From Balanoglossus misakiensis (lineage: Eukaryota > Animalia > Hemichordata): 64,000 nt of DNA. Below are positions 5,087 to 52,822 of this stretch, piece after piece; the stretch's first letter is position 1; every line of letters begins with the position of its first letter. The translations under genes were made by a program, and so were the position numbers. The DNA lies in assembly GCA_040954595.2 (NCBI GenBank), contig CM082591.2:8050047-8114046 (forward strand). The letters run 5' to 3'. The notes under the pieces were generated by a model. That model saw nothing but the letters and a program-made list of their open reading frames with translations, was not told where the DNA came from and made no database searches.

Positions 5087-5904
5087 TCATGTCTGCTTGT
5101 AGAATACTTTGATTTGGTCGCTGGTCAACTCTCTAACAGCAATTCTGTCACCGCTGACTGCAAGGAACCAGGGGCTTGTCACCTCACCTTCAAATAAGTG
5201 ACAGATCCACTCTCCATCAAATCTCCATTTCACAATCCTATCATTCCTCCAATCACACACAAACAAATTATCGTCGTCATCGACGTCAATGCTGCTAGGA
5301 CCGAACAGCTGACCAGGACCTGAACCTTCCACACCAAATTGATACAAGAATTTCAATTCAGCATCAAAACACTTGATGCAGTGATTGCCGTAGTCAGACA
5401 CCATGATGACATTCTTACTGTTGACCACCACAGAGTATGGGGAACTGAATTGTGTTTGGCCACCGCCTCGACCACCAACCTCTGCAACATACTGACCATC
5501 TTGGGTGTACTTGAGTAGCCGATGACCTTCGAACTCAGTGACCAAAACAAATCCATTCAGTAGAGCGATGCCAGAGACATTGACGCCTGCAGGTAGAGTA
5601 ATTATTCTCAGAATTTTATTGTTTTGATCACAAACAACAATTTGAGAATTTCCACCATCACTTATGAAGTAGATGTTGTCATGGGAGACAGCTACATCCC
5701 TTGGCTGGAATGGCTTTGCAAACTGACCATCAAAACTTCCCAAGACTTTGTCACAGGTGTAATCTTGATTCAGTATCTGTACAACCCTGTTGCCTCGGTC
5801 ACACACCACCAGTTTGTCACCATGGAACACCATACGTCCTGGGTTCTTAAACTTTCGCCCTGGCTTTGGACTTTGGCCATCCAGTGTCCTCACTGACCAG
5901 TGAC
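5087..5904 (-). CDS. A, last exon: NHL-repeat six-bladed beta-propeller
   Basis: NHL motifs such as QFSSPYSVVVNSKNVIMVSDYGNHCIKCF and GQLFGPSSIDVDDDDNLFVCDWRNDRI. Acceptor cctaacag|GT; stop TGA at 5087. Confidence 0.92.
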
Positions 5905-8900
5905 CTGTTAGGTGAAACAGAGGTCAAAGGTCAAACATGCTGTACCCTATTGAAATGCATTAGGAATATGATGCTGGAGTTAGTGTTTTATTGTTCATTT
6001 TTACAAGAGCAAGCATATTACACAAGAAACGAATCATTGCTATGGCAACTGAACTACCAAAGGGCAGTTTCTCTACACAATGTTTACAGTGACAAGTAAC
6101 CATGGCAACCAGACTAACCCCAGTTTGCGGAACTATTTTTTATTGCTCTGCAATACCAAGGAAGAAATTTATTGTCTCTTTGTTGACAGATTATTATAAA
6201 ATACATGAAAGACTTTCTTATTTAACCATTCAATAGATATACTAACATTGATGTTACTATGGTAACGCATTTTAGGAAATCAGGTCAAAAATAATTTTTT
6301 TCTTATAACTTTTGACTTCATAGACATTTCATAAAAAATCTTGAACTAAACGTCTGGGATAATTCCTCAGTTCATTATTTTTCTGAACAAATTTATGATG
6401 GTAACATTATTAACTGGTAACCATGACAACTGAATTTATTTTGCAAAATATGACATTATGCAAGAGTTAGTGTTTTAATAAAATTTCTTTTAACAAATTG
6501 AATTAATGCTTGGATAAAATTTCTGCCAAAGTACCATATATGTTTTTCAATACCAAATAACCATGGTAACATACATGGAACAGATCAGTAAAACAATAAT
6601 CATTGTCTTTTAATTTTAAAGATGGTTATGTTGAATATATTGATTTTGATATTTCTTGACATGTTTACAATCATTTTGAACCACATACATGGCGGTTCTA
6701 AAGTAAACACATACTCGGAAAAACTTTGACTAGATGCCGAAATATTGCTTGCCCGTTGTCACGAATTACGCCGAGTCAGGTAGTTTCTATTCAAGAACTA
6801 TTTATTGTCCAGCATAACATCGCTAACAAACTACTCAAGTACATCCAAGATCCGCATCCCACTCGTGTTGCTTCCTTTGCACACGTTACATAATATGCTA
6901 ATGAATCACATGACATTATTTTAATCATCTGCTGATGACGTATCAGCACATCTCCCTTTCTTTTGAGTTTGTGACACTTTTACACATAAACAAACTTTCT
7001 GTTACGAATGCCAATGCAAATAAAGCTCAAATAAAACTCAAAATATCGTAATTGTCTTATTGTCTTTCATTAGTGTTCATTGTGGTAATATTGAAAGTAA
7101 TTGTCTCTACTAGGCTAATAATACTCAAACAAGTTACCCTATACAACTACACTTAGGGGTGGACTACCCTAAGCTTGACAGTGCCAGGGGATTATTCTGC
7201 CCCTCACAGTGGCATCTGCTTTCTATCTAGCCCTAATACTCATCGTGATATTTCACAGGTTTCTTCACGATTCGTCCACTTCTGGTTCGGACCTGCTCTC
7301 CTGTATTTTCCGGAGGTGGTGGTGTTATCTCTCCGTTTGTTGTAGCATCTTTTTCCCCTCTGGGTAGTGGACTTTCTTCTCTGGTTGGCATAACCGGATA
7401 CAATATTTGTTCCTTCGGTGGTGTTGCATTCTGGGATGACTTCTCTGGTCTCGATGTGAACAATAGATGTCTCCGGTTTCTCCTCAGAGTACCATTTGAT
7501 GTCTGTATGATGTAAGAACGTGGTGTTGTATCAGCACTGATTACTTTTGCTGGTGTTTTCCAACCACTTTCTCCATCCAATTTAACTTTGACCTCGTCTC
7601 CTGGCAACAGCTCTGGCAGGCTTTTCGTTCCATGTCGTTTATTGTATGCTCTTTTGTATGCATCTTTGGCCTTCTTATCTGCAGCTCGGACTGTCTTCAG
7701 GTCGGGCTGTTCCGGCACTAAATTTTGTGGAAGTGTTGGGAGTGTTGTGCGTATTTGACGTCCCATCATCAACTTGCATGGACTGGTGCCTGTGGCTGCT
7801 ATTGGAGTTTCTCTGTAACTCATCAGTGCAAGAAATGGATCTTCTTGCTTCAGGATTTTCTTCGCGATGCGAACGCCGCTTTCTGCCTCTCCATTGGATT
7901 GTGGGTAATGAGGGCTGGAGGTGTTGCATCGAAATCCATACTTTCTGCTAAACTCTTGGAATTCGAAAGCTGTAAACTGTGGACCGTTGTCGGAGAATAT
8001 TTCTTCTGGAATTCCCCATCTTGCAAACATATTCTTCAGTTGCCTATTATTTGTCGACTAGTAGTGGTGGTCATGTGTACAATTTCTAACCATCTGGTTT
8101 GGTAATCCATCACTACCATGAATTTCTGGCCATCGCATTCACAGAGATCGACCGCAATTTTCTGCCATGGCCTCTCTGGCAACGGGGTAGTCATCAGTGG
8201 TTCTCTTCTTTGGGTTGGTTTGTTTTCATTGCAAAACTTGCATGTGGATATCTTCTTCTTGATATGTTTTGCGATGCCTGGCCACCAAACTGACTGGATA
8301 GCTCGCTCACGGCATTTTGTCAAACCCTGATGTCCTTCGTGGATTCGGTTGAGGGTATCATTCCTCATACTTGTCGGAATCACGATTCTATCTTCATAGA
8401 GCACCATGTTGTTGATGACTGACAGTTGTCCCCTTACAGCGAAATATTTCTGTATTTCTTCTGGGACTTCTTTCGATCGTTTGGGCCATCCTAGTTTTGT
8501 AAACTCTAGGACGAGTCGTAGTTGGTCATCAGCTTGTGTTTGTTCACTGATCTCTTCCAGCTTTTTTGTTGAAACTGGTTTGCTTGCTTCCACGTACTCC
8601 ACGTGGGCTTGTACATCTTCCACGGTGGTTGGGCTTTCTGTACGTTTTACTGGAAGTCTGGAAAGTGTGTCAGCTACCACCAATTCCTTGCCTGGTACAT
8701 ACACTGCCTTGGCGTTGAACCTCATTAGTCGTAGTAGTAGTCGTTGACATCTCAGTGGTGTCTTGTCCAAATCTTGGCTGTTTATCAGTGGTACTAATGG
8801 CTTATGATCGGTTTCCAGGGTGAATGACTCCAATCCGGTCAGGTAACGTGAGAATTTTTCACATGCCCATACACCTGCAAGACATTCCTTTTCTATCTGT

Positions 8901-11900
8901 GCGTATCTCTGCTCAGCTTTGGTCAATGTGCGGGAAGCATAGGCTACTGGCCGTCGTCTATCTCCCTCATCTTGAAATAGGACTGCACCCATTGCGTAGC
9001 TGCTTGAGTCTGCACTCACCGTGATTGGTTTACTTGGGTCGTAAAATGCCAAAACCGGTGTTCTTGTTACTAATTCTTTCATTTTCTTAAAGGCGTCGTC
9101 TTGCTTTGGTCCCCAGAGCCATGCTGTATCACTTTTGAGTAATTCGCTCATTGGCTGTAGTGTGGCTGACAAGTTTGGCAGGAATTTTCCGAGGTTGTTT
9201 ATCATGCCAAGGAGTTGCTTCAGTTCATGTACATTGGTAGGGGGTGGAAGCTCTTCTATTGCTTTCACTTTATCTGGATCTGCGCTCACGCCATCTCCGC
9301 TAATTATCCCTCCAAAGAACTTGATGCTTGATTTCTTTATTTCACACTTTCCTTTATTTAGTTTCAGTCCGGAATGTTCTACCGTGTGAAGTGTTTTGTT
9401 GAGATGTTTATCGTGGTCATCTCCCGATTTCCCATGTATTATGATGTCGTCCATGATAGCCTCTACGTTGTCATGGTCACGCAACATGTCTGACATTACA
9501 CGCTGGAATATTTCGGGTGCTGAGGTGATTCCAAATGGCAGCCTTTTGAAGCAGAACCGACCAAACGGTGTAATAAATGTGGTCAACTTTGAGCTCTCTG
9601 GATCTAAGGGAATCTGCCAGAATCCACTTGAGGCATCTAGTTTGGAGAATACGTTGGATCCTGCTAGTTTTGGAGCTATGTCTTCTAATGTTGGGAGGAC
9701 ATATCTTTCTCTTTTCACTTCTTCATTTAATTTCCTCAGATCCACACAAATTCTGACTTTTCCACTCGGCTTTTGGACCACTACCATAGGAGCACACCAT
9801 TCTGTTGGCTCGGTAACCTCTTCTATAATTTCATTTTCAAGCATTCGCTGCAACTCTTCCTTCACTTTTGGAAGCATTGGAAATGGAACCCGTCGTGTTG
9901 TGTTTACACTGTACGGTTTAGCACCTTCTTTCAGCTGTATTTTTACCGGCTTACATTGCACTAAGCCTACATCTCCAAACACATTTGTTTGCTCAGGACT
10001 CTTTGGGTTACTGACCTCTTCGGCTCTAATTACCAGTCCCATCTGACAGGCAATCTCCCGTCCGAGCAGGTTGTTGACATGATCTCCCTGTATCACGTAT
10101 ATTGGTACAGAATAGACTTTGTCTTTGTAGCGGATGTGGGCTGTAAACTGACCTTTGCAATCCAGTTTTCCCCCTGGGCTCAATAAATCGGCATCGGGTG
10201 GTTTCAGTGGAGTGCCTCTGGCTATTTGTTTATATATCTTGTGTGAGATAACGGATATGTCGGCGCCCGTGTCGATCTTGAAATTAATGGTTTTCCCACT
10301 GACCTTCAAGTTTACTTGCCAAGCTGTCTTCATTTCCTCGGCTTTGGAAATGGCTCCCAAGAAATATGACCTTTTCTCCACTTCCTCAACGGTAGTTTCC
10401 ATTTTTGTCACCTCTTTCACATCTTTGCTTCTGCAAACGGTTGCGAAGTGGTTCATCTTTTTACATTTGTTACACTCTTTTCCTCGAGCGGGACACTGTC
10501 CTTTTGCGTGTTTCCGGCCGCACCTACCGCATGCACTTTTGGGATTTTCTTCTCCTTTCCCTTTTGGCGACCTGCCTTGTTTTCTACCCGGTTTGTACGG
10601 CGTTTTCCTTCTTTCGAAAACTTCGTCAAGGGCTTTGGCATGTCCTTGTGCTGAAACTTGGTCTTTTACCTTTTCTGCCTGTTTTGCCATCTCGATCGCT
10701 TTTTCAAGTGTCAAACCACTTTCTAATTGCATTCTTTGTGACACTTCCGAATCGAGTATTCCGACGACAATTCTATCCCGAAGACTTTGATCTCGAAATA
10801 CTCCAAAGTCGCAACGATCTGCCATGTCATAAAGATCTCTCAGAAATGCTTCTACGGGTTCCCCTTTTTGTTGTACCCGTTGGTTGAAACAGAGTCTTTC
10901 ATGAATGACGTTTGTTTTAGGGATGAAATGCTCGTCGAGTTTCAGCATAACGATGTCGTAGTTATTTTTATCAGTCTCAGCGGCGAATCTTAGTCCGGCA
11001 AAGACTTTATCGGCTTCTGGGCCCATGCTATAAAGGAGTGTGTTTACCTGGATCGCCCCAGATTCCTTGTCGAGCTTCGTAATCAGTCTGTACCTTGTGA
11101 AACGTGTCTTCCACGCAGGCCATTCCGCTACGTTGAAGCTGAAGCTTTCTGGCGGGTTAGCTTTCGGCATCTTGGTTTCCGTGTTCCTCGTCCGGGAAAG
11201 TTACTGGTACTGCACGGTTTTCACTGCTTTACCGCTGCCACCATGTCACGAATTACGCCGAGTCAGGTAGTTTCTATTCAAGAACTATTTATTGTCCAGC
11301 ATAACATCGCTAACAAACTACTCAAGTACATCCAAGATCCGCATCCCACTCGTGTTGCTTCCTTTGCACACGTTACATAATATGCTAATGAATCACATGA
11401 CATTATTTTAATCATCTGCTGATGACGTATCAGCACACCCGTCATCTGAAAATGACAACGCCGTTGGTCGCATGGCCAGATCACGTGATTGATAGTAAAG
11501 AATTGATTTTGATATTTCTTGATAACATTGTTACAATCATTTTGAACCACATACACATACTCTAGTTAGTAGGTCATCAAGTTCTTGGTTTGTGTTATAG
11601 GTCGGAAAAGAAAAATGCCTTATGAATGAGATGAATATACATTTGTTTCTTTTTCTAGTCGACCAGAGATGGTCTGCTTTCAAATCAGTAATTATCACAT
11701 TGGTGAAGAGAGAACAAATCTACTGTCCTCAGATGAGAAGGCTGCCACTTTCTGAGACCAAGTGAGTATTTTAGTTGAACAAATGCATGAGAAAATAATT
11801 GTTGTAACTTTAACTTCAGAGAATTTACTGATAATGTTGTCCTATAATAGTGGGCTACTTGAAACGAAAATAGACTATTGAAAATGGTAAAATAATTTGA

Positions 11901-14900
11901 GTAGAAAATCTATCTGAAAGAAGTTTGTTAATCATTGCAGATGATCTGAGAGATGGAAAACCTACAGTCACTTAGGATGAGTCATGATAAATGGTCTGTC
12001 TCAACGCCACTGGCTGTTCCAGATTGTCATTGGATAAAAAAATTGGTAAGTCCCTTATTTGAATTTCATAATTTAAATTGTACTATGAATGAAGTGGGGT
12101 AAGCTAAATGTATAAAACATACGCGTACGGTGCTTTTAACCCTTCCACCACCATGGTTTGGTCCAAGTCTGTTGTTTTCTATGGTAAATGTGGACCTCTA
12201 TAGAGGGAACTAGGGGGTAAAGGGTTAACATGTGGTCCTTGAGGAAACACTGAAAGACTATTAGCCACTGATGCTTTACTCTGAACAGATGATTCCAGTG
12301 AAATGTGTACTTTTACAGTTAGCCTCGACATTTTCTGAGCATGTCTGGTTTCATTGCCTTACCTTTCTCACCTGTAGTCTGTCTTTCTTTTGACTTTGGT
12401 TCATCTTGATTGGTTAGGTCTGCAGACCCAGATGACTCTTCTCTTGTTGTCTCAGGTTGTGTTGGTTTGGTTTTGGCATCCCCAGTTTCTTTTTCTGTAG
12501 TTGTCTCTGGTTGTGGATGTTTGGTTTCCCCCGATCCAGTTTCTTCTTCTCTTCTCATCTCAGGTTGTGTTGGTTTGGTTTTGGCATCCCCAGTTTCTTT
12601 TTCTGCAGTTGTCTCTGGTTGTGGATGTTTGGTTTCCCCCGATCCAGTTTCTTCTTCTCTTCTCATCTCAGGTTGTGTTGGTTTGGTTTTGGCATCCCCA
12701 GTTTCTTTTTCTGCAGTTGTCTCTGGTTGTGGATGTTTGGTTTCCCCCGATCCAGTTTCTTCTGCTCTTCTCATCTCAGGTTGTGTTGGTTTGGTTTTGG
12801 CATCCCCAGTTTCTTTTTCTGCAGTTGTCTCTGGTTGTGGATGTTTGGTTTCCCCCGATCCAGTTTCTTCTGCTCTTCTCATCTCAGGTTGTGTTGGTTT
12901 GGTTTTGGCATCCCCAGTTTCTTTTTCTGCAGTTGTCTCTGGTTGTGGATGTTTGGTTTCCCCCGATCCAGTTTCTTCTGCTCTTCTCATCTCAGGTTGT
13001 GTTGGATTGGTTTTGGCATCCCCAGTTTCTTTTTCTGCAGTTGTCTCTGGTTGTGGATGTTTGGTTTCCCCCGATCCAGTTTCTTCTGCTCTTCTCATCT
13101 CAGGTTGTGTTGGTTTGGTTTTGGCATCCCCAGTTTCTTTTTCTGCAGTTGTCTCAGGTTCTGGATGTTTGGTTTCCCCCGATCCAGTTTCTTCTTCTCT
13201 TCTCATCTCAGGTTGTGTTGGTTTGGTTTTGGCATCCCCAGTTTCTTTTTCCTCAGTAGTTTCAGTATCACCAGCTTTATTTGAACATTGAAATGAGAAG
13301 ACACAAATTAATTCCCTTGAGATTGTAATGTTAATAAATATATCTTTTGAAGCCTGATAAAGAGTGTTGAAAATGGTGAATGAGAATACCATGGTGACCT
13401 CAGTTTAAAGTAGAAAACAAATCAGAAACATTCTCGTATACAGTTAATGATAGTGAAAATTGAAGCAACAAGATAAAATGAAAGCCAATATGGTACATCC
13501 TCTGGATTGTTGTAATCATCAGCATGTCTCATTTACAAGGCTTAATAATAATATGAACCAGCCATTGTTTATGTCACATGTGACCACATCCCAAAGTAAA
13601 ACTTAAAATCAATCTCACCTTGTTCAGTTTTCAATGTGATCTCTTCTCCCAGTTGAAGAGCCATAGCCTTTTTCAGTTGCAGCTCATTATCATATTGCTC
13701 ATCATGTTTTTTTGATAATTTCAACTTGAGTTCAGCAATTATTTGGTCTTTCTGATCAAGTTTGGACTTCAACTCTTGGATGTGTCTAGGGTCTGATTCT
13801 TCTAATCTTTGCTTGAGGGAAATGACATCCAGAAGTTGTGTGAAAGCTACTTTTTCAGTTTTTTCAAGTTTCTGAACACAATCTTTGTACTGCTTTTCTA
13901 AGATGAACTTTTCCTGAATTGCTTCTTTCAACTGATTCTCTAGAATCGTGTTTTCTGCTCGAAGTTTGAACTTTTCTGCCAAGGTCTCATCCATCTGCTG
14001 TTTTAGAGATTTCTTATCTGATTTCAAGGACTGCATTTCTTGGAACTGTTTTAGACTAACTTCAAAGGGCAGTAAGCTTTGTGCTTGTGAGCTGATAGAT
14101 TCATCTGGAATGGAAAGAACTGGTGTGCCATATTGTATGATTTTCCCCTCCAAATCTGAAATGAAGTAGATTTAATAATTATTATTTAAATGTAGGATGT
14201 ACATTAAGCAATCTGCAGATGTCAAATACTTTCGTTTTACGTTCACCTTATTATTTAAATTTGTGAAGTAAATTTCACAATGCTATTGACCTTGGTAAGA
14301 TATGCAGGAAATGGCTTTGTCAAATTCAATAAATTTTGAATGCTCTAGTTTAGTATAAGTTGATAAAAAATAATACCGATGGATGAATGGCGATAATTGT
14401 TTGTTGTAACTTGTGAGTAGTCATTTTTAAAAACAAGGAAAATATTTCCGGTACTATTTGGCTGCTTTGTGTATCTTGGTACTGAAAGAAACAAATTCTG
14501 AGAGTTTCAGTCAAACCTTTGGAGTGTGTAATATGCTTGTCAGACTTGGTGACTAATGTAATAAAAATCATTATTACACCTCACGTATTATACCGTTTTC
14601 GTGATTGGCTGAGACGCGCTCACGTGATATAGAAAAAAAAGTGATATAACATGGCTAGAGTTGATAAAGCCCTGTCGTGTGCGCTGATATTGCCCGCTGG
14701 GTTGTTTTGGTGTTCTGCGCGCGACTTCTGCGCGTTCCAAACTGTCGTTCAATGGCTTCCTTCACGATCAGTCAACTCCCGCATCTATATGGCTTCAAAG
14801 CGACACACAGGCTTAACACCTGTTCAACTGGATGATATTTTACTGCAAACGGACAGTAAATACAACAAAATCGCAACCAACAGTGCAGTATTTTCAAAAT

Positions 14901-19565: not shown

Positions 19566-20007
19566 TGTATTCCTATCAGGAAGAAGTATGGGCAAGGAAA
19601 TATGTGAGATTGTAACAACTGTTTCTCTGAAGAGTGACTGTTTAAATATTCATGCACATAAGTCACATTGCAATACTGAGTAGGGAGCTAGAAGGTCAAA
19701 TGAGGTCACAGTGTGTTAGAAATCAGGCTTCAACATGTCTGATTAAATATTATCCAAATATTCTACATTTGACATCATGAGTGAGTAGTGACCAGTCCAT
19801 ACAAATACACAGTTTTACAACATCTACTTATTACCATAATCATTATTTAGGATTTGTTGTTATTATATCTAGTTAACTAAAAGAATAAAGTGCTTTTCAG
19901 TGAGAAATGATGAAAGTGTTAAATTATGAGAATTTGAAATTTGTAGACCTCCATATGACCAATGGCCAGGATGTGTGGTACTTTGTAACTTGTGTAGCCT
20001 TTGTTAT

Positions 20008-40127: not shown

Positions 40128-40945
40128 TTATGTCTGCTTGTAGAATACTTTGATATGGTCTCTGTTCAACTCTCTAACAGCAATTCTGTCACCGCTGACT
40201 GCAAGGAACTCAGGGAGGCTCACCTCACGTTCAAATAAGTGACAGATCCACTCTCCATCAAATCTCCATTTCACAATCCTAGAATTCAACTGATCACACA
40301 CAAACAAATTATCGTCGTCATCGACGTCAATGCTGCGTGGATACCTCAGCTGACCAGGACCTCTACCATACACACCAAATTGATACAAGAATTTCAATTC
40401 AGCATCAAAACACTTGATGCAGCAATTGCCACAGTCAGACACCATGATGACATTCTTACTGTTGACCACCACAGAGTATGGGGAACGGAATTGTGTTTGG
40501 CCACCACCTCGACCACCAACCTCTGCAACATACTGACCATCTTGGGTGTACTTGAGTAGCCGATGACCTGCGATCTCAGTGACCAAAACAAATCCATTCA
40601 GTAGAGCGATGCCATAGACAATGATGTCTGCAGGTAGAGTAATTATTCTAAGAATTTTATTGTTTTGATCACAAACAACAATTTGAGAATTTCCATTATC
40701 ACTTATGAAGTAGATGTTGTCATGGGAGACAGCTACATCCCGTGGCTGGAATGGCTTTGCAAACTGACCATCAAAACTTCCCAAGACTTTATCACAGGTG
40801 TAATCTTGATTCAGTATCTGTACAACCCTGTTGTCTTGGTCACACACCACCAGTTTGTCACCATGGAACACCATACCTCTTGGTCCTTTAAACTTTCGCC
40901 CTGGCTTTGGACTTTGGCCATCCAGTGTCCTCACTGACCAGTGAC
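40128..40945 (-). CDS. B, last exon: NHL beta-propeller
   Basis: Same length as in A; about 30 aa differences; stop TAA. Confidence 0.92.
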
Positions 40946-43900
40946 CTGTTAGGTGAAACAGAGGTCAAAGGTCAAACATGCTGTTCCCTATTGAAATGCT
41001 TTAGGAATATGCTAGAGTTAGTGTTTTGTTGTTCATTTTAACAAGAGAAGCATATTACAAACAAAACGAATCATTGCTATGGCAACTGAACTACTAAAGG
41101 GCAGGTTCTCTACACAATGTTTACAGTGACAAGTAACCATGGCAACGAGACTAACCCCCAGTTTCTGGAACTATTTCTTTTTTTCTGCAATACCGAGGAA
41201 GAAATTTACTGTGTCTCTTTGTTGACAGATTATTATAATATGCATGAAAGACTTTCTTATTTAACCATTCAAAAGACATACTAACATTGATGTTGCTATG
41301 GTAACACATTTGAGGAAATCAGGTCAAAAATAATATTTTTCGTGTAACTTTTGACTTCATAGACATTTCATAAAAAATCTTGCACTAAACTTCAGGGATA
41401 ATTTCTTATATCATTATTTTTCTGAACAAATTTATTATGGTAACATTAACTGGTAACCATGACAACTGAATTTATTTTGAAAAATATTGCATTATGCAAG
41501 AGTTCTAAAGTGTTTCAATATAACTTCTTTTACCAAATCGAATTAATGCCTGGATAAATTTTCTGCCAAAGTACTATATATGTTTGAGGTTTTTCAATAC
41601 CAAGTAACCATGGTAACATACATGGAACAGATCAGTAAAACAATGATCATTGTTTTTTAATTTTAAAGATGGTTATGTTGAATATATTGATTTTGATATT
41701 TCTTGATAACATATGGTTACAATCATTTTGAACCACATACACATACACTAGTTCGTAGGTCAGCAAGTTCTTGGTTTGTGTTATAGGTCGGAAAAGAAAA
41801 ATGCCTTATGAATGAGATGTCGACCAGAGATTATAGTCTGCTTTCAAATCAGTAATTATCACATTGGTGAAGAGAGAACAAATCTGCTGTCCTCAGCTGA
41901 GAAGGCTGCCACTTTCTGAGACCAAGTGAGTATTTTTGTTGAACAATTAATGCACGAGAAAATAATTGTTGTAACTTTAACTTCAGAGAATTTACTGATA
42001 ATGTTGTCCTATAATAGTGGGCTACTTGAAACCAAAATAGACTATTGAAAATGGTAAAATATTGTTAGTAGAAAATCTATCTGAAAGGAGTTTGTTAATC
42101 ATTGCAGATGATCTGAAAGATGGAAAACCTGCAGTCACTTAGGATGAGTCATGATAATGGTCTGTCTCAACACCACTGGCTGTTCCAGATTGTCACTTGG
42201 ATAAAAAAATTGGTAAGTCCCTAATTTGAATTTCATAATTTAAATTGTACTATAAATGCAGTGGGGTAAGCTAAATGTGTAAAACATATGCCTACAGTGT
42301 TTTTAACCCTTTTACCACCATGGTTTGGTCCAGACCCATTGTTTTCTATGGTAAATGTGGACCTCTATAGAGGGAACTAGGGGGTAAAGGGTTAACATGG
42401 GGTCCTTGAGGAAACACTGAAAGACTATTAGCCACTGATGCTTTACTCTGAACAGATGATTCCAGTGAAATGTGTACTTTTACATTTAGCCTCGACATTT
42501 TCTGAGCATGTCAGGTTTCATTGCCTTACCTTTCACACCTGTAGTCTGTCTTTCTTTTGACTTTGGTTCATCTTGTTTGGTTAGGTCTGCAGACCCAGAT
42601 GCCTCTTCTCTTGTTGTCTCAGGTTGTGTTGGTTTGGTTTTGGCATCCCCAGTTTCTTTTTCTGCTGTTGTCGCAGGTTGTGGATGTTTGGTTTCCCCCA
42701 ATCCAGTTTCTTCTTCTCTTCTCATCTCAGGTTGTGTTGGTTTGGTTTTGGCATCCCCAGTTTCTTTTTCTGCAGTTGTCTCTGGTTGTGGATGTTTGGT
42801 TTTCCCCGATCCAGTTTCTTCTTCTCTTCTCATCTCTGGTTGTGTTGGTTTGGTTTTGGCATCCCCAGTTTCTTTTTCTGCAGTTGTCTCTGGTTGTGGA
42901 TGTTTGGTTTCCCCCGATCCAGTTTCTTCTTCTCTTCTCATCTCTGGTTGTGTTGGTTTGGTTTTGGCATCCCCAGTTTCTTTTTCTGCAGTTGTCTCTG
43001 GTTGTGGATGTTTGGTTTCCCCCGATCCAGTTTCTTCTTCTCTTCTCATCTCTGGTTGTGTTGGTTTGGTTTTGGCATCCCCAGTTTCTTTTTCTGCAGT
43101 TGTCTCTGGTTGTAGATGTTTGGTTTCCCCCGATCCAGTTTCTTCTTCTCTTCTCATCTCTGGTTGTGTTGGTTTGGTTTTGGCATCCCCAGTTTCTTTT
43201 TCTGCAGTTGTCTCTGGTTGTAGATGTTTGGTTTCCCCCGATCCAGTTTCTTCTTCTCTTCTCATCTCTGGTTGTGTTGGTTTGGTTTTGGCATCCCCAG
43301 TTTCTTTTTCTGCAGTTGTCTCTGGTTGTAGATGTTTGGTTTCCCCCGATCCAGTTTCTTCTTCTCTTCTCATCTCTGGTTGTGTTGGTTTGGTTTTGGC
43401 ATCCCCAGTTTCTTTTTCTGCAGTTGTCTCTGGTTGTAGATGTTTGGTTTCCTCCGATCCAGTTTCTTCTTCTCTTCTCATCTCTGGTTGTGTTGGTTTG
43501 GTTTTGGCATCCCCAGTTTCTTTTTCTGCAGTTGTCTCTGGTTGTGGATGTTTGGTTTCCCCCGATCCAGTTTCTTCTTCTCTTCTCATCTCTGGTTGTG
43601 TTGGTTTGGTTTTGGCATCCCCAGTTTCTTTTTCTGCAGTTGTCTCAGGTTGTGGATGTTTGGTTTCCCCCGATCCAGTTTCTTCTTCTCTTCTCATCTC
43701 AGGTTGTGTTGGTATGGTTTTGGCATCCCCAGTTTCTTTTTCTGTAGTTGTCTCTGGTTGTGGATGTTTGGTTTCCCCCGATCCAGTTTCTTCTTCTCTT
43801 CTCATCTCAGCTTGTGTTGGTATGGTTTTGGCATCCCCAGTTTCTTTTTCTGCAGTTGTCTCTGGTTGTGGATGTTTGGTTTCCCCCGATCCAGTTTCTT

Positions 43901-46900
43901 CTTCTCTTCTCATCTCAGGTTGTGTTGGTTTGGTTTTGGCATCCCCAGTTTCTTTTTCTGCAGTTGTCTCAGGTTGTGGATGTTTGGTTTCCCCCGATCC
44001 AGTTTCTTCTTCTCTTCTCATCTCAGGTTGTGTTGGTTTGGTTTTGGCATCCCCAGTTTCTTTTTCTGCAGTTGTCTCAGGTTGTGGATGTTTGGTTTCC
44101 CCCGATCCAGTTTCTTCTTCTCTTCTCATCTCAGGTTGTGTTGGTTTGGTTTTGGCATCCCCAGTTTCTTTTTCTGCAGTTGTCTCAAGTTGTGGATGTT
44201 TGGTTTCCCCCGATCCAGTTTCTTCTTCTCTTCTCATCTCTGGTTGTGTTGGTTTGGTTTTGGCATCCCCAGTTTCTTTTTCTGCAGTTGTCTCTGGTTG
44301 TGGATGTTTGGTTTCCCCCGATCCAGTTTCTTCTTCTCTTCTCATCTCTGGTTGTGTTGGTTTGGTTTTGGCATCCCCAGTTTCTTTTTCTGCAGTTGTC
44401 TCAGGTTGTGGATGTTTGGTTTCCCCCGATCCAGTTTCTTCTTCTCTTCTCATCTCTGGTTGTGTTGGTTTGGTTTTGGCATCCCCAGTTTCTTTTTCTG
44501 CAGTTGTCTCTGGTTGTGGATGTTTGGTTTCCCCCGATCCAGTTTCTTCTTCTCTTCTCATCTCTGGTTGTGTTGGTTTGGTTTTGGCATCCCCAGTTTC
44601 TTTTTCTGCAGTTGTCTCAGGTTGTGGATGTTTGGTTTCCCCCGATCCAGTTTCTTCTTCTCTTCTCATCTCAGGTTGTGTTGGTTTGATTTTGGCATCC
44701 CCAGTTTCTTTTTCTGCAGTTGTCTCAGGTTGTGGATGTTTGGTTTCCCCCGATCCAGTTTCTTCTTCTCTTCTCATCTCTGGTTGTGTTGGTTTGGTTT
44801 TGGCATCCCCAGTTTCTTTTTCTGCAGTTGTCTCAAGTTGTGGATGTTTGGTTTCCCCCGATCCAGTTTCTTCTTCTCTTCTCATCTCAGGTTGTGTTGG
44901 TATGGTTTTGGCATCCCCAGTTTCTTTTTCTGCAGTTGTCTCAGGTTGTGGATGTTTGGTTTCCCCCGATCCAGTTTCTTCTTCTCTTCTCATCTCAGGT
45001 TGTGTTGGTATGGTTTTGGCATCCCCAGTTTCTTTTTCTGCAGTTGTCTCTGGTTGTAGATGTTTGGTTTCCCCCGATCCAGTTTCTTCTTCTCTTCTCA
45101 TCTCTGGTTGTGTTGGTTTGGTTTTGGCATCCCCAGTTTCTTTTTCTGCAGTTGTCTCTGGTTGTGGATGTTTGGTTTCCCCCGATCCAGTTTCTTCTTC
45201 TCTTCTCATCTCAGGTTGTGTTGGTATGGTTTTGGCATCCCCAGTTTCTTTTTCTGCAGTTGTCTCTGGTTGTGGATGTTTGGTTTCCCCCGATCCAGTT
45301 TCTTCTTCTCTTCTCATCTCTGGTTGTGTTGGTTTGGTTTTGGCATCCCCAGTTTCTTTTTCTGCAGTTGTCTTTGGTTGTGGATGTTTGGTTTCCCCCG
45401 ATCCAGTTTCTTCTTCTCTTCTCATCTCAGGTTGTGTTGGTATGGTTTTGGCATCCCCAGTTTCTTTTTCTGCAGTTGTCTCTGGTTGTAGATGTTTGGT
45501 TTCCCCCGATCCAGTTTCTTCTTCTCTTCTCATCTCTGGTTGTGTTGGTTTGGTTTTGGCATCCCCAGTTTCTTTTTCTGCAGTTGTCTCAGGTTGTGGA
45601 TGTTTGGTTTCCCCCGATCCAGTTTCTTCTTCTCTTCTCATCTCAGGTTGTGTTGGTTTGGTTTTGGCGTCCCCAGTTTCTTTTTCTGCAGTTGTCTCTG
45701 GTTGTAGATGTTTGGTTTCCCCCGATCCAGTTTCTTCTTCTCTTCTCATCTCTGGTTGTGTTGGTTTGGTTTTGGCATCCCCAGTTTCTTTTTCTGCAGT
45801 TGTCTCGGTTTGTGGATGTTTGGTTTCCCCCGATCCAGTTTCTTCTTCTCTTCTCATCTCTGGTTGTGTTGGTTTGGTTTTGGCATCCCCACTTTCTTTT
45901 TCTGCAGTTGTCTCTGGTTGTGGATGTTTGGTTTCCCCTGATCCAGTTTCTTCTTCTCTTCTCATCTCTGGTTGTGTTGGTTTGGATTTGGCAATCCCAG
46001 TTTCTTTTTCCTCAGTAGTTTCAGTATCACCAGCTTTAATTCAAAATTGAAATGAGAAGACACAAATTTAATTCCCGTGAGATTGTAATGTTAATAAATA
46101 TATCTTCTGAAGCCTGATAAAGAGTGTTGAAAATTAAACAGAATATGGTGACCTCAGTTTAAAGTAGAAAACAAATCAGAAACATTCTCGTATACAGTTA
46201 ATGATAGTGAAAATTGAAGCAACAAGATAAAATGAAAGCCAATATGGTACATCCTCTGGATTGTTGTAATCATCAGCATGTCTCATTTACAAGGCTTAAT
46301 AATAATATGAACCAGCCATTGACCACATCCCAAAGTAAAACTTAAAATCAATCTCACCTTGTTCAGTTTTCAATGTGATCTCTTCTCCCAGTTGAAGAGC
46401 CATAGCCTTTTTCAGTTGCAGCTCATTATCATATTGCTCATCATGTTTTTTTGATAATTTCAACTTGAGTTCAGCAATTATTTGGTCTTTCTGATCAAGT
46501 TTGGACTTCAACTCTTGGATGTGTCTAGGGTCTGATTCTTCTAATCTTTGCTTGAGGGAAATGACATCCAGAAGTTGTGTGAAAGCTACTTTTTCAGTTT
46601 TTTCAAGTTTCTGAACACAATCTTTGTACTGTTTTTCTAAGAGGGACTTTTCCTGAATTGCTTCTTTCAACTGATTCTCTAGAATCGTGTTTTCTGCTCG
46701 AAGTTTGAACTTTTCTGCCAAGGTCTCATCCATCTGCTGTTTTAGAGATTTCTTATCTGATTTCAAGGACTGCATTTCTTGGAACTGTTTTAGACTAACT
46801 TCAAAGGGCAGTAAGCTTTGTGCTTGTGAGCTGATAGATTCATCTGGAATGGAAAGAACTGGTGTGCCATATTGTATGATTTTTCCCTCCAAATCTGAAA

Positions 46901-49900
46901 TGAAGTAGATTTAATAATTATTATTTAAATGTACATTTAGTAATCTGCAGATCTGAGTAGATGCTATTGCCAAATATTTTACTTTCACATTATTATTTAA
47001 CGGATCTGGATTTAACGGTTAGGATTAGTGTTGGCATTTTTTCGATCCACGGCCCCGGGCATCACTAAGCCATAAAGAGAGACAAGGGTGGAAACTAGCC
47101 CAGTACGGCAAAACCTGAATGTCTCGTATCGGAAGGTTAAATGCGTCATTGAAATTCAAATTGGACCAATCAGATAGCTTGTTAGTCCTTGCAAGGGGAC
47201 GTTAACAAGCTATTTGATTGGTCCAGTTTGAATTTTTACCTTCTGATACGAGACATTTAGGTTTTGCCTGTACGGATGTCAACAGAGAACGATGTGAAAT
47301 ATCGCCGATTTATACATTGAATTACAGGATATATATAGCAAGTATAGAGTATTTTGTCACTGCAAACGTAATATTTCAAATGTCAGACATTTATTTGTTG
47401 TGTTATTCTGGACTCGAAAATACAGTGCTGGGACCCGGAAATGGGCTAGTCTCCACCCTTGTCTCTCTTTGTGGCTTAGTGATATGTCCGGGGCCGTGGA
47501 TCGAAAAAAAATGCCAACACAAATCCTAACCGTTGATAATACCCTAACCCTTACATGTCAACAAACCATATTTATTAATAAAGAAATATGTATTTGTTTA
47601 TTATGCCAATCAACAACAACAAACAAACAAACAATAAAATCGCGGAGGGACAGCCCCCTGTGGTAGGATATGCGGGAAATGGCTTTGTCAAATTCCATAC
47701 ATTTTGAATGCTCTACCGTAGTTTAGTATTAATTGATAAAAAAAATTACCGATGGATTAATGGCGATAATTGTTTGTTGTGACTTGTGAGTAGTCATTTT
47801 TAAAAACAAGGTACAGTTGTAAATATTTCTTGTACTATATGGCTGCTTTGTGTATCTTGGTACTGAAAGAAAGAAATTCTCAGAGTTTCAGTCAAACCTT
47901 TGGAGTGTGTAATATGCTTGTCAGACTTGGTGACTAATGTAATAAAAATCACTGTTTATTACCTGATTCACTGAAATCAGCCCTTTCTGTGTCAGTCATA
48001 AGATACCTTCTAATACCCAGTAACTCTAAGACTTGAGGTCTGTGAGATAGGATATGCTGAACTTTCTTTGTCATTTTCCCAGATAGTTGTATGATGTCAA
48101 ACTCTCTTCCTTTCTGTCTTTTACACTGCTCACTGTCAAATATCTGAGGTGCATGTTTGTCTGCTAACTTCTGGAATTTACATGTTGGATCAATCTCCAG
48201 AAATGTCTTGTATATTGTCCCACCTGCAAGACATATATGATGTACAATTCTTTTTACTTTTTGGGTAAAACAATTCCCACCTTAATGATGAAATGTCTCT
48301 ATCTGTGATTAAATGGTCTCTATCAAAGAGGCCTAAAATGGCACCTTTGCCCAGAGTAACAGTAGGTTTAGGAAACTCAAATGATATAACAACATACATG
48401 TATGAACATGATGATCACGCCCAAAATCTTGTACTTACCTCGTTTCAGGTCAATCTGGAAATGATCAGAATGAATTTCCATCTCTGCATCTTGGAAAGCA
48501 AGACATGTTCTTTGATCCTTAATTGGATATAATGGAGATTTAGTATTTATTAGTATTTGGTATTGAATAATTAGGGGTTATTACACTAATTTTGGTCGAT
48601 AACGTGTCGTATTCGAGTGATGTCCGTATTTTGACGAGTTGCGCTTCGCAACGAGTCAAAATACGGACATCACGAGAATGCGTCGCGTTATCGACCAAAA
48701 TTCGTGTAATAACCCCTTTATCATACATGCCTACCTATAAAACAGTACGATTTGCGAAAATGCGCCGAGAAAAACAATTTCAAATTTGAACCAGGCGCTG
48801 GGATCACGGCAGTAGCCATGTTGTGACGTATGATGTGTGGGCCGTAGTATCATTTTAAGGGGGTTGGCAGCTTTCATTACGATGGGCACTTCCGCATTCT
48901 AAATAAAATTGTCTACGTTCTCTTTCAAAATATCATGTTAACAATTATTTTGCATTGAGAATTTCGAAGAAGTAAAAATGATACATTCAACATTGCAAAA
49001 CTGCCAGCTTTGAAAACGTTATTGCAGCTTCTAATAACCGAATTTTACAACACCCCTCTCCACTAGCGTCCTATGCCCCGTACGTCGCTCGCACGCGCAG
49101 CGAACTGTCGCGCCGTGCGTTCTCAAAAATTGTTCGAGACGCGGAGTGTAATACCGTAAAATATCGCGCTCAGTGTAATACCGTAAAATATCTTCGGGGC
49201 GAGAACAATAGAAAGTGCCAAATACAGGCGTTGCATGTATGATAATTAGTAATATAGAATAGCACATTATTGTTTTCAGAATCATTACAGTAACTTTGTT
49301 GTCATTTAATTTAACATGATATTGTTTCATTCACTCACATAACACACTAACATAACAATCTCAATATATCTTTACCTGATCAATGATATCATCATCACTT
49401 TCCTCTTCTACACTGTCATCACACACTTTCACTGATCTTATTCCCCCACCATCTCCTGGAAGATAATAAAACAGGAAATGTATAGTGTATTATATTATAC
49501 CAGTATATTGATGGTGTAAATCACGCTATTTTATTGGTCGAGACATGACACGTGACTGTGATATATTAGCCATATACCACAGTCATATATCATAGTCAAA
49601 GAAAATGCCTTTTTAAAATGTTTTATGCAAAGTTTCAATATACTGGCATAATATAATAGGAATAACACACCCCCAGCCATGGTATTCCACTCGATTTTGA
49701 CCAGTTCAACTCCATATACGCACGAGCGATGTCGTGAACTGGTCAAAATCTCGTGGTATACCATGGCTGGGGGTGTTTTATTGCTTAAATATGTACACTC
49801 TTGATTCTTTGGAAAAAATGTCTAAAACTTGAGAAATTAGCTTAGAGATAATACAGTTAACCATGCAACATGTTTTGATTTTGTTTGTCAGAAACAATTT

Positions 49901-52822
49901 TTATATTGCATCTTTAAAATTTATTTTGAAGTGTTTAGTGTTTCAGTGAAGTTTGCGCCTTTGTTATAAGCTTATAGTTACTATTTCTTTACTTGCAAGA
50001 GAGGATGTCTGTATAGTCTAGCCTAGTGCCAAAATGTAAAAATCAGAAATGTTAAATGTAAAACTAAAAATCAGAAACTTACTGTTCAGGAAGAATAGTT
50101 CCAGTTCATCAAACCTGGCTTGGTCATATGTAGCTATCAACTGTAGTGGAATTCCAGCTGTGTTGGCCTCTGTCATTTCATCTGTCATCAAGATTGGTTC
50201 TAATGCCTTGGCTAAACTTCTTGAATCTTCAAGACAGCTTCCCCGCAATCTGTAGAGATTATAAAGTCTACGCATATAGACTGTGATTTGCAGAGACCCT
50301 GTTTCCATATTTGTTATGTCCACTTTCCCCAGTTTATCAGTGCAGGCTTTCTTGACTTTGTTGATGTCATCACCGTTGGTTACCACTTCAGCTGCTCTTC
50401 TCTCCAACCCCTGTTTGCATTTGTCCCAAGATGCAGAAGCTGCCTGCTGCATTGCCTCGTTCGGTGCTTCGTCTCGTAGATGCTGCTGATAGGCATTTTC
50501 ATCCAGTCTGAGATGAAATGAAATGGTTGTGTCTTCATGGTTTTCTGTGTTTTGTAGCAGCTCTGCTGTCATACTTGTATCCGTTTCATCCAATTCCTTA
50601 ATGTGGACTTTCGTGGCTTGTTGGTTTGTGTCATTCAATGCTTCTTCTGCTGTTCTCTTTGCTGGTGGTTGACTTGGTGTCTGCTGCTCTGCTGTTGCTG
50701 TATTTTGTTGATGGCTATCTCCATCTGGCTGGACTGGAACTGCAATTGCTGTTTCAGAATGGTAGAAGTACATAAGCTGTATGACATGTTTGAAGCAAAC
50801 TCATTGTTTGAATGATTAGCTGGCTAAAAAAAGTTTAAACTGATAATAGAACACAAAATATCATATACAATGTAGCTCATACTGGTATATACCTCATATA
50901 CCAGTGCATTTAGATCTGGTCTTTCAACAGCAACAAAATAGTACAGTTGGGGTATTGTTATGGGGAAACTTAGAGCCACATAATTTATTAACATGCTGCA
51001 ACACTATCTGAATGAGGATTGAATTCAAAGTGCAGACATCCAGCCTTGAAGTTGAACAATAAAGAAAACTTAACCATGAATCCTTAACCAAACATAAGAT
51101 TACTTAAACTGTACCTGTTGCTTTTGTTGTTTCCTTACTGCATTGGTCATGTTCATCTTCCTGTTGTTTTCTTGCCTTTGGTGTCAACATACTGGCAAAT
51201 GTTGCATAACTCTTTTTGACATCTTCACTCTCCATGAAAGCCTTCTTCAGCTCCTTAGCTTCTTCAAAAGCTATTCTGGTCTTCTTGACACTCCATATTA
51301 TCTTCTCCGAAATCTTATCAGATGAGTGTGAAACTACAAATCTGTCTGCGTAGTATGGAAAGTATTTCTTGATGAACTTTCCAAGCTGGGAATATTCAGT
51401 GGGATAGGTTGGTGTTCCGGATGCTACACCTTCTAAACCACTAAATCCATATTCGACACTGAAAGGTGGTGGAAGGCAAATGTCAGATTGACAAAGTGAT
51501 CTCCTTAAGGTCTTTGCCGAGTAAGCAGGGAGAAGATGTGCCTTTACGTGATCGCTGTTTATCTGCTGTAGGAGATATTTTCGTTCAGCATGACCTGCTT
51601 GTCGAGAAGCTCCCTGTACTGACCATTTCAGAAGTTTGTCATAAACATCTTTCAGTACTTTTGCTGCACTTCCAATAGAAGCTGCTAGTGTCTCACATCT
51701 GTCCAGGGTTTCTTGGGTATCAATCTGTCCGTATGTCAGTATGCTGTGAGTTGTCACTTCATCTGGTAACTTTGGGTCCATCTTGAAAAAGACTTCAGCA
51801 GGTTTGGGTAAAATCTCTGCATGAGGGATCATGTGTAGTTCCCTGTCATCAAAGGTAGCCCGGTATTCGTTCTGGAAATGCTCATACACACTTGGACCAA
51901 TTGAGAATATTATGTCAGCTTCACTGGCCATCTTCAGCATCATTTCACTGAACTTTTCTGTTGATAATCCCAGCAGACAGTTATCATCTTCATAGGCATG
52001 GTTGATCATCACTAGTTCTGCACCTGGAAATACTTTCTCTCTGATGTCTGCAGCAGCGAGGAAAGTCTTGGGAGCATAACCAACAACATGCTGGATGTTT
52101 ACAAGCTTTTGTAAGTCAGGATAGTAGATTTTATGATACATCAACCACTTTAATTCTGGCTTGTCTTCATCTGGGTCGATTCTTCCCTGTCTTTGTGCTG
52201 GAATCAATTTAACCCGACACTTGGCAGCATCTGCCTTCTGGTCATCACTGGCTTTGACACCAACAAAGGTGGTGTAGGCTTGAACAGGAGTTCCTTCTTC
52301 ATCTTTCCTTGCACAGAAATCTTGTACAAGAATTCTGTGAAACCCAGTCAAGCCACAATCTTCTTTGTTCCATTCATCATGCACAAACAATACTCCAGGA
52401 GGTGGATCTGGAAGATGGAGTTGATGAAGTTTGGCTTCAGGGAAGAGACTTGCGTGAATTGCTTTGGCTGCATTGTGTGTCTGTGGAGAATATCCGACTA
52501 CATGTTGGATGTTTTGCAGGTCCTTCAGGTCTGGAAAGTAGTTAATATGGTTAAAAAGCCAATGTACTCCAGGGGGATCTTCAAGAGGGTCTGCCCACTT
52601 GTTTCTTGTAGCTGGGATCAAAGTAGCACCAACACTCTTTGCATCTTTCTTTTGTTCTTCACTCACTTCAACTTCAAGGGTAGTACATTGGAATTCAGAA
52701 ACGTTCTCAGACACGAGTGTGTTTTCTTGGAGATGTTTGATTATAGCTTGAGTTGGTTGGGAGGTCTTTGCCTCCTTGTCCCATGATTTCAATACAACCA
52801 GTGCTGCAGATGGTTCTGACAT
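40128..52822 (-). CDS. Paralogue B: same architecture (about 2550 aa, 8 coding exons)
   Basis: Exons 52822-51115, 50748-50083, 49455-49376, 48517-48439, 48223-47963, 46894-46358, 46033-42530, 40945-40128. Total 7653 nt, in frame; splice sites as in A. Confidence 0.8.
42530..46033 (-). CDS. B exon 7: 36-aa coding minisatellite, about 31.5 units
   Basis: 3504 nt, equal to the A exon plus exactly 24 x 108 nt; frame uninterrupted. Confidence 0.85.
47014..47534. mobile_element. MITE with ~88-bp TIRs and a nested ~170-bp palindrome (B-specific)
   Basis: AACGGTTAGGATTAGTGTTGGCA...ACTAGCCC vs GGGCTAGT...TGCCAACACAAATCCTAACCGTT. Inner palindrome 47103-47273. Absent from the A intron near 14260. Confidence 0.85.
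48574..49248. mobile_element. Subterminal-hairpin element (B-specific)
   Basis: Hairpin 48574-48716; ATAATTA on both sides; empty site in A near 15850; inverted relative at 55435-56110. Confidence 0.88.
49490..49787. mobile_element. Subterminal-hairpin element (B-specific)
   Basis: Hairpin about 49661-49782; empty site in A near 16095. Confidence 0.85.
51115..52822 (-). CDS. B exon 1: one partial N-lobe repeat plus full GT4/GT-B-like domain
   Basis: Core nearly identical to A; one ~140-aa repeat fewer. Confidence 0.85.

Follow-up and report, generated by a model that had tools for sequence, protein, structure and literature searches.

We identify two predicted tandem genes, A and B, that are likely to encode fast-diversifying intracellular immune sensors, proteins that would signal rather than transfer sugars. 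They lie in a 64,000-nucleotide stretch of Balanoglossus misakiensis DNA (the window). We read them in this way from their sequences because the GT4 domain is without three active-site residues, a predicted TRADD-N-like fold follows it, and the C-terminal NHL propeller has changed on its top face only. Both gene models carry these domains; the donor motif is lost throughout their GT4 clade, the propeller differences cluster on the top face, and the propellers fall in a clade common with TRIM ligases.

In our joint explanation, on which our confidence is evenly balanced, genes A and B arose by recent tandem duplication within a family that has expanded in acorn worms, and the family would encode cytosolic pattern-recognition proteins that combine ligand sensing by NHL, TRAF recruitment by the TRADD-N-like domain and a non-catalytic GT4. 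The top face of the propeller would bind a changing foreign ligand, the helical segment of exon 6 would cluster the receptors, and the TRADD-N-like domain would draw in a partner of the TRAF type. The GT4 domain, its catalysis presumably lost, would serve as a ligand-binding or regulatory module and not as a transferase, and acorn-worm GT4/TRADD-N/NHL proteins would act in immunity.

Two tandem eight-exon genes

Gene A (19565-5087) and gene B (52822-40128), both on the minus strand, are each predicted to join eight coding exons into a single, stop-free open frame, of 1824 and 2547 amino acids, respectively (Table 1). All 14 introns have GT-AG borders, phases are compatible at 14/14 junctions and six exons have equal lengths in the two genes. 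These junctions and frames, together with the Pfam matches to GT4-conflict and NHL given below, agree with the initial annotation, which had proposed two tandem eight-exon genes joining these modules in frame. It had also called them intact; that holds for the exons of both, and we restrict the word to exons because a 4.7-kb LTR retrotransposon, with identical 194-bp LTRs, a 5-bp target duplication and an integrase spread over two frames, sits in the last intron of gene A.

We consider it very unlikely that GT4 and NHL are transcribed separately, or that the assembly has placed two haplotypes in tandem as A and B. A search of sequencing runs with 46300-52900 listed no RNA run containing it, which speaks neither for nor against. 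Many Ptychodera flava models end before the NHL or have no GT4, and the LTR in intron 7 of gene A carries an AATAAA on the gene strand, as separate transcripts might lead one to expect. Against such an artefact stand the compatible phases, the same module order in 35 independently annotated proteins from two genera, and the A/B homology itself, which breaks off ~440 bp before the start codons, the regions farther out not being collinear, unlike alleles.

An acceptor-like tract lies immediately 5′ of the start codon in both genes, so that each is likely to have an upstream non-coding exon. The first residue lies ≤30 residues from the first lobe in 44/48 relatives with tandem N-lobes. Relative P0202 has a DED exon further upstream; a search of the window for this or another 5′ coding exon gave no match at E <0.07, and such an exon was rejected, and no protein family was assigned to the upstream ORFs scanned. 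A crude hydropathy scan found no hydrophobic N-terminus in either gene, its top windows (1.75 and 2.03) falling within propeller strands, in line with the earlier statement that no signal peptide or transmembrane segment is evident. An Rfam search gave 0 matches.

Table 1 Features of genes A and B in the window (positions count from its first letter).
Feature	Position	Strand	Description
Duplication unit A	2334..20011		homologous to unit B 37370-53266; introns and flanks 2-7% apart
Gene A coding exon 1	17435..19565	-	two extra truncated GT4 N-lobes 19559-18729, then GT4-conflict 18728-17508
Gene A donor site	Arg site Q 18050; Lys site D 18026; first-Glu site V 17780	-	+1 D 17777; second Glu kept 17756
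Gene A exon 2	16399..17064	-	low-complexity linker, then TRADD-N-like 16846-16400; GS turn, Ser 16612
Gene A exon 3	15983..16062	-	short acidic linker, 27 codons
Gene A exon 4	15721..15799	-	short linker, poor conservation, 27 codons
Gene A exon 5	15244..15504	-	compact ferredoxin/ACT-like domain (predicted fold)
Gene A exon 6	13619..14155	-	helical, charged; probable coiled coil
Gene A exon 7	12372..13274	-	acidic S/T/P-rich stalk, 108-bp unit x7.4
LTR retrotransposon, Ty3/gypsy-type	6757..11437	-	intron 7, gene A only; same strand as gene
Gene A exon 8	5087..5904	-	six-bladed NHL propeller and stop
Gene B coding exon 1	51115..52822	-	one extra N-lobe, then GT4-conflict 52405-51185
Gene B donor site	Q 51727; D 51703; V 51457	-	+1 E 51454; second Glu 51433
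Gene B exon 2	50083..50748	-	linker and TRADD-N-like 50530-50084
Gene B exon 3	49376..49455	-	gene model
Gene B exon 4	48439..48517	-	gene model
Gene B exon 5	47963..48223	-	ferredoxin/ACT-like domain (predicted fold)
Gene B exon 6	46358..46894	-	probable coiled coil
Gene B exon 7	42539..46033	-	stalk, 108-bp unit x31.5, frame open throughout
Gene B exon 8	40128..40945	-	NHL propeller

A GT4 clade without the donor triad

Exon 1 matched Pfam GT4-conflict (PF20706) with E values of 1.4e-38 (A) and 5.9e-34 (B), scoring 133.4 and 118.1 bits against a curated cut-off of 26 and covering profile positions 1-374 of 385. The N-terminal repeats are truncated GT4 N-lobes without the Gly loop and the His; their number varies between the copies, as first noted (two extra units in A, one in B), and the extra lobe of gene B is a mosaic of gene A repeats 1 and 2.

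In GT4 enzymes, pyrophosphate binding is assigned to the donor-site Arg and Lys, sugar binding to the first Glu and ribose binding to the second, and some enzymes can do without one Glu of EX7E (PMC8760489). The canonical donor motif mapped onto solved GT4 enzymes in a PDB profile search; a single-sequence PDB search with the GT4 core gave 1 chance match (E 1.2). Both genes have Gln and Asp at the pyrophosphate-binding sites and Val at the first Glu, and only the second Glu of EX7E is present. Trees (FastTree and quick trees) placed the window GT4 in a remodelled clade of 62 domains from three acorn-worm genera, in which the complete Arg/Lys/first-Glu triad occurs in 0/62 (Arg 2/62, Lys 13/62, first Glu 5/62), compared with 66/84 in the canonical clade (Arg 75, Lys 73, first Glu 83). 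Counts from a second alignment, with a profile made from canonical domains only, were near-identical (Lys 14/62).

The fold is nonetheless kept, with 111 columns ≥90% conserved across 41 core-clade domains. The clade retains the second, ribose-binding Glu (62/62), the N-lobe His (55/62, and both window genes) and part of the Gly loop; it has an acid at +1 in 57/62 and a new near-invariant Gln and Asp/Glu. A conserved N-lobe His is a feature of catalytically competent GT4. The Lys and first-Glu columns vary freely, with no fixed replacement residue. Both window genes, and 25/61 of the clade, have an Arg directly following the Lys site, which could compensate.

The initial annotation had proposed an effector-adaptor-sensor layout. 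Its modules and their order stand, but an enzymatic role for GT4 is doubtful because the Arg, Lys and first Glu are absent from both genes and never occur together in the clade; the supposed effector is likely to be a pseudo-enzyme or to have a rewired site. The kept ribose Glu and His and the new acid at +1 suggest that the donor site has retained binding of a nucleotide or nucleotide sugar.

A doubtful alternative, although one to be taken seriously, is that GT4 remains an active transferase whose donor site has been rewired, and that it glycosylates an invader molecule captured by the propeller. The retained His, second Glu and partial Gly loop, the new Gln and Asp/Glu, the Arg beside the Lys site and the +1 exchange between the genes (Asp in A, Glu in B) would all suit such an enzyme. 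It also has precedents: single motif residues can be missing from active GT4s, Pseudomonas aeruginosa WaaG has Thr in place of Arg, the changed Arg going with a changed donor (PMC10579960), and GT4 conflict domains have been proposed as effectors (PMC8195603, section 15). The joint loss of three donor-binding positions, the free variation of the Lys and first-Glu columns and the extra N-lobes without Gly loop and His speak against it. In the immunity of marine invertebrates, GT4 conflict domains are taken to act as enzymatic effectors, an assumption for which the triad-less clade offers a direct test; keeping the fold without the triad, this acorn-worm clade is a candidate pseudo-enzyme sensor.

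A TRADD-N-like domain and a second ferredoxin-like domain

The exon-2 model (pLDDT 94.2) has a two-layer beta-alpha-beta-beta-alpha-beta fold. Two fold searches each returned TRADD-N as its top match, at weak scores: Foldseek placed it first among 350,542 chains (E 8.1e-3, TM 0.40), and a second search first among 48,161 chains (Z 6.3, with 109 aligned residues at rmsd 4.2; the second-best match had Z 5.6). No Pfam family matched exon 2 at E up to 1, and a protein atlas search with the domain gave no usable match. The beta2-beta3 turn is GS in both genes, and 51/52 sequences carry Ser or Cys at the TRAF-contact position (Ser 44, Cys 7), preceded by Gly in only 19/52. The vertebrate TRADD N-terminal domain (PDB 1F3V, 1F2H) is alike in fold and in the Ser at this turn; exon 2 differs in its low identity (9-11%) and longer first helices, and the window genes have no death domain. 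The TRADD-N-like module of the initial annotation is upheld on these grounds.

Exon 5, on its predicted fold, is a second ferredoxin-like domain, which the initial annotation had missed. It is optional in the family, occurring in 10/35 full-layout relatives. That exon 5 had been copied from exon 2 was rejected by profile comparison (probability 0.2); TRADD-N was absent among the matches listed in a fold search with exon 5, to which it may still be related. A protein atlas search with the exon-5 domain of relative P0004 gave no usable match. The exon 2/3 join of gene A matches a motif present in 44 relatives; counts for the 5/6 and 7/8 joins were set aside, as loose extension could inflate them.

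The coiled coil first proposed agrees with the composition of exon 6, but the heptad test was not significant (159/1000 shuffles equally high). Stalk length varies between the copies as claimed, from 7.4 units in A to 31.5 in B.

Propeller change is confined to the top face

Exon 8 matched Pfam NHL (PF01436) above its cut-off (E 3.7e-19 for A, 2.5e-15 for B), with six blade motifs, and its best solved matches were the TRIM-NHL proteins Thin, TRIM2/3, TRIM71 and Brat. The genes differ here at 30/271 residues (11.1%): all 30 differences fall in the 103 top-loop positions, and neither the 30 bottom-loop positions nor the 138 strand positions contain any (P 1.2e-14; loop limits hand-drawn from the blade motifs after the A/B differences had been viewed). 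The hypervariable propeller surface described at the outset is thereby supported. With identical scaffolds at all 168 non-top positions and 30 changes on the putative binding face, the pair is a clean natural experiment.

Top-face dN was 0.216 against a dS of 0.099 (P 0.04); for the whole exon the difference was not significant (dN 0.074, dS 0.050, P 0.2). Top-face dS is also elevated (0.099 vs 0.018), and gene conversion may therefore contribute to the change. Variability also peaks at the sites that changed between A and B in a set of 21 acorn-worm paralogues (P 2e-7) and in 10 P. flava TRIM-NHLs (P 3e-6), with no excess of mean paralogue entropy in top over bottom loops (1.82 vs 1.72, P 0.22). 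The initial annotation had placed variation in the propeller, the stalk and the N-terminal repeats; all three vary, but exon 2 also differs, at 20/221 residues (9.0%), with dN < dS.

We think it improbable that the proteins have a role unrelated to pathogens, such as self/non-self or gamete recognition or Brat/LIN-41-like RNA regulation, with endogenous partners or selfish elements driving the propeller change. In developmental regulators the NHL top face is an RNA-binding surface (PMC4015489), the nearest solved propellers include such proteins (Brat, TRIM71) beside Thin and TRIM2/3, and the top face has 13-17 basic vs 8 acidic residues. Conserved RNA regulators, however, do not have one third of the top loops altered when the introns of the duplicates are 2-7% apart, and the GT4 and TRADD-N partners stem from conflict contexts. 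If the immune-sensor reading is true, NHL, mainly known as a conserved RNA-binding fold, becomes a diversifying recognition surface in a deuterostome. LRR and SPRY domains are comparable diversifying surfaces.

Relatives and described systems

The closest relatives of both genes are acorn-worm proteins. The complete module order occurs in 35/229 retrieved proteins (~29 loci; P. flava, Glandiceps) and the window GT4 subfamily in 57 P. flava clusters, which supports an expanded family in relatives. In other relatives this cassette is followed by TPR, NB-ARC/TPR or PARP14-like tails or preceded by a DED, and the usual immune contexts of these partners count for the sensor reading.

The layout cannot be called undescribed, as it had been: GT4+TRADD-N is reported in hemichordates by Kaur et al. 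(2021, PMC8195603), whose supplement labels Saccoglossus GT4-TRADD-N proteins DEDD2 and has a row for an amphioxus GT4+TRADD-N+beta-propeller protein. In a limited library that scarcely covered subscription papers, we found no paper that treats this family, a GT4-conflict clade without activity or a hypervariable acorn-worm NHL; nor did we find in print the GT4 clade without the donor triad, the identity of the N-terminal repeats as truncated GT4 N-lobes, the second ferredoxin-like domain, or the top-face confinement of NHL change with variable sites common to TRIM-NHLs.

The window genes show the pattern of Kaur et al., namely GT4, TRADD-N, a variable C-terminal repeat domain and lineage-specific expansion. 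They resemble the cnidarian, amphioxus and hemichordate systems (DEDD2 clade) in module order, in expansion in marine invertebrates and in having retrotransposons close by, and add extra N-lobes, the second ferredoxin-like domain, a repeat stalk and the remodelled donor site. Amphioxus XP_019644604.1, whose propeller is an NHL, has GT4, TRADD-N and NHL in common with them. Amphioxus GT4-NHL proteins, however, keep the Lys and EX7E and sit in the canonical clade, whereas the window genes do not, and a single origin with the acorn-worm clade was rejected (AU P 6e-102 for three proteins, 2e-5 for XP_019644604.1 alone).

Coral glycos_transf_1 proteins with TPR, ankyrin or NACHT-LRR (PMC12314368) likewise combine an N-terminal GT4-type domain with a repeat sensor in clustered expansions, their TPR and ankyrin forms being mostly without NACHT; in the window genes the sensor is NHL and there is no NACHT. 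We found no NACHT, NB-ARC, LRR, RING or B-box in the scanned exons (1, 2 and 5-8), matching the earlier description of a layout without NACHT, RING and B-box.

TRIM-NHL proteins (TRIM2/3, TRIM71/LIN-41, Brat, Thin) and a P. flava TRIM2/3-like expansion share the C-terminal six-bladed NHL with the window genes, which have GT4 and TRADD-N in their N-terminal half in place of RING/B-box. It is possible, although unlikely, that a conflict GT4 of bacterial type has become, in acorn worms, a dead enzyme sensing a microbial nucleotide sugar or glycan, joined to a TRAF-recruiting domain and to a hypervariable NHL exon swapped with TRIM ubiquitin ligases. Such proteins would form a two-input cytosolic repertoire of dozens of genes without NACHT or LRR, one propeller pool feeding both signalling and degradation. 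The P. flava TRIM-NHL genes fall in the propeller clade of the window genes; the propeller of this TRIM2/3-like expansion varies at the same sites, and P. flava TRIM propellers share 58-65% identity with that of gene B, as close as those of GT4 paralogues.

Two tandem genes with open eight-exon models

Self-comparison of the window revealed a direct duplication, with one minus-strand gene in each unit (genes A and B). The feature pointed out in the initial annotation is real: predicted splicing at GT-AG junctions joins eight coding exons into an open frame of 1824 aa in A and 2547 aa in B. Exons 2, 5, 6 and 7 are phase 1 at both ends, the pattern expected of shuffled modules.

The introns and flanks of A and B differ by 1.9–6.7%. 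Upstream of the start codons, homology extends for ~440 bp and the sequence farther out is not collinear, which speaks for a genuine tandem duplication rather than two haplotypes. In the GT4 core, A and B are closer (dS 0.014) than in exon 2 (dS 0.094) or the introns, hinting at recent gene conversion. The retrotransposon in gene A has identical 194-bp LTRs, a 5-bp target duplication and an integrase broken over two frames near 8040–8060; because it places an AATAAA on the gene strand within the last intron, gene A may be truncated in vivo.

Features of the window and their coordinates
Feature	Position	Strand	Remarks
Gene A	19565-5087	-	eight coding exons
Gene B	52822-40128	-	eight coding exons
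Duplication units	2334-20011; 37370-53266		direct
Pyrimidine tract + AG	19566-19600 (A); 52823-52860 (B)		directly before start codons; an upstream non-coding exon is likely
Ty3/gypsy-type LTR retrotransposon	6757-11437	gene A strand	young; last intron of A; absent from B
4.2-kb element	20002-24231		1.1-kb inverted ends, internal 168-169-bp repeats; where A/B upstream homology stops (A side); probably a non-autonomous DNA transposon
165-bp satellite	1-3488 (21 copies); 37370-38526 (7 copies)		downstream of A and B, respectively
Tandem array, 112 bp x30	31697-35022		
Tandem array, 127 bp x7	59864-60766		

A large acorn-worm family of a known kind

A search with exon 1 found 58 proteins, 57 of them from Ptychodera flava, at no more than 57% identity, so the source is likely an acorn worm akin to P. 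flava yet distinct from that assembly; both PF20706 and NHL were present in 16 of 30 long matches from P. flava. A search of representative sequences gave 306 matches (150 of them covered, names looked up for 20). Across all 229 proteins retrieved, GT4 C-lobe, TRADD-N-like and NHL domains occurred in that order in 35, or 29 once identical segments were collapsed (25 P. flava, 4 Glandiceps talaboti). The family is large; these 35 relatives are database gene models, so the joined architecture is supported only as far as their annotation is correct. In other members the C-terminal tail is TPR, NB-ARC/TPR or PARP14-like, or a DED stands at the N-terminus. A remodelled GT4 and TRADD-N-like cassette is also N-terminal in a 3027-aa PARP14-like protein of G. 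talaboti (P0073; RRM, KH, Macro, WWE, PARP).

The layout had been put forward as undescribed, which was not borne out: it is a variant of a kind described in the parts of PMC8195603 covered here, which place GT4 ahead of TRADD-N in proteins of cephalochordates, hemichordates and cnidarians, with GT4 proposed as an effector. The supplement (30 of 176 GT4-GTase entries and all 60 Saccoglossus entries covered; the remainder may contain closer rows) includes GT4+TRADD-N proteins of Saccoglossus whose tails are Bcl-2, LRR or ankyrin, several TRADD-N+coiled-coil+beta-propeller proteins, and an amphioxus GT4+TRADD-N+beta-propeller protein, XP_019644604.1. Inactive GT4 domains are unmentioned in its section 15. 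Clade-wide loss of the donor triad, strict top-face diversification and a propeller pool shared with TRIM ligases were not found in the literature searched, and all three are directly testable.

Loss of the GT4 donor triad

Among 159 complete GT4 domains, a tree separated 62 in a clade with the window genes (FastTree 0.999; SH-aLRT 100 in an 18-row subset) from a canonical clade of 84, leaving 13 in neither. With names looked up for all but 8 of the 62, every named member of the window clade comes from a hemichordate (P. flava, Glandiceps or Saccoglossus), and the five named canonical members are amphioxus. The canonical profile aligns with solved GT4-type enzymes across the donor-site motif, in which the pyrophosphate is bound by Arg and Lys, the sugar by the first Glu and the ribose by the second Glu (sections of PMC8760489). 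Canonical domains keep the Arg (75/84), Lys (73/84) and first Glu (83/84), with the full triad in 66; window-clade domains keep them in 2, 13 and 5 of 62, with no full triad and no triad residue at all in 44. The second Glu is retained in 62/62. The position after the first-Glu site is Asp or Glu in 57/62 window-clade domains, whereas it is Pro in all 84 canonical ones. Re-alignment to a canonical-only profile gave agreeing counts.

From these residues, transferase activity of the window-gene GT4 domains has probably been lost, though with modest confidence. That they are still active would be in keeping with the functional Pseudomonas aeruginosa WaaG, in which Thr replaces the Arg (PMC10579960, in part), with the dispensability of one Glu of the EX7E motif (first and second Glu) in some enzymes (PMC8760489), and with an Arg adjoining the Lys site in both A and B; loss is nevertheless the reading we favour. 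Most donor-site residues are also missing from the 13 domains outside both clades (P0013, P0100, P0101, P0117, P0141, P0144, P0149, P0158, P0168, P0175, P0181-P0183), four of which are named P. flava, so decay may have occurred several times.

XP_019644604.1 (P0122), whose propeller is NHL, resembles the window genes in GT4+TRADD-N+NHL, but its GT4 belongs to the canonical clade and a common origin with the acorn-worm genes was rejected; GT4-to-NHL fusion therefore likely arose more than once. Amphioxus P0163 and P0166 represent a separate GT4-NHL fusion: their canonical GT4 is joined to a weak match to filamin and to NHL, a tail like that of TRIM2/3 but lacking RING.

Repeats, candidate adaptor and stalk

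Exon 1 gave a family match to GT4-conflict and exon 8 one to NHL. The initial annotation had overlooked a folded domain in exon 5. This is predicted to be compact and ferredoxin-like (pLDDT 82.4, best Z 7.9), a fold common to S6, ACT and HMA domains, and is found in 10 of the 35 full-layout relatives.

Each N-terminal repeat is ~138 residues long and copies strands one to five of the GT4 N-lobe, without the Gly loop or the His. Gene A has two and B one, which starts like A repeat 1 and ends like A repeat 2, the product expected from unequal crossing-over. Two are likewise present in three of the four P. flava relatives placed closest in the GT4 tree; none of six Glandiceps representatives examined had tandem N-lobes.

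The exon-2 domain had no Pfam match. Its model (pLDDT 94.2) ranked TRADD-N first with Foldseek (E 8.1e-3) and VIA-align (Z 6.3, rmsd 4.2, 109 residues; runner-up 5.6). The TRADD-N turn pairs a small residue with a Ser that touches TRAF2 (Kaur et al., PMC8195603, in part); it is GS in A and B, with Ser or Cys in 51/52 aligned domains.

E/K/Q/R/L/A residues make up 65% of exon 6, whose 139 residues include a single Pro but no Gly; a heptad test was not significant. The stalk spans 302 aa in A and 1166 aa in B, and the matching segment 4–845 aa among 20 relatives, several with a similar 18-residue unit.

Diversification of the NHL top face

Of 271 propeller residues, 30 are different between A and B; every one falls within 103 top-loop positions and none at the other 168 (P 1.2e-14). 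In these loops dN exceeded dS (0.216 versus 0.099; P 0.04, post hoc); the same comparison over the whole exon gave P 0.2. Top loops held 28 of the 30 columns that varied most across 21 relatives, and sites variable between A and B exceeded other top sites in variability (2.48 versus 1.54 bits); average variability did not differ between top and bottom loops.

Searching with the NHL exon found 56 proteins, including 12 from P. flava with RING and/or B-box (58–65% identity). TRIM propellers were nested among those of the GT4 family and TRIM monophyly was rejected (AU P 0.003; 35 of 60 rows, group chosen after the first tree). The TRIM group also contains two GT4 proteins encoded on the same contig as several TRIMs, making chimeric annotation a possible cause of their placement. 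A P. flava TRIM2/3-like expansion (P0193-P0205, P0221) falls in the same NHL clade and is variable at the same top-face sites.
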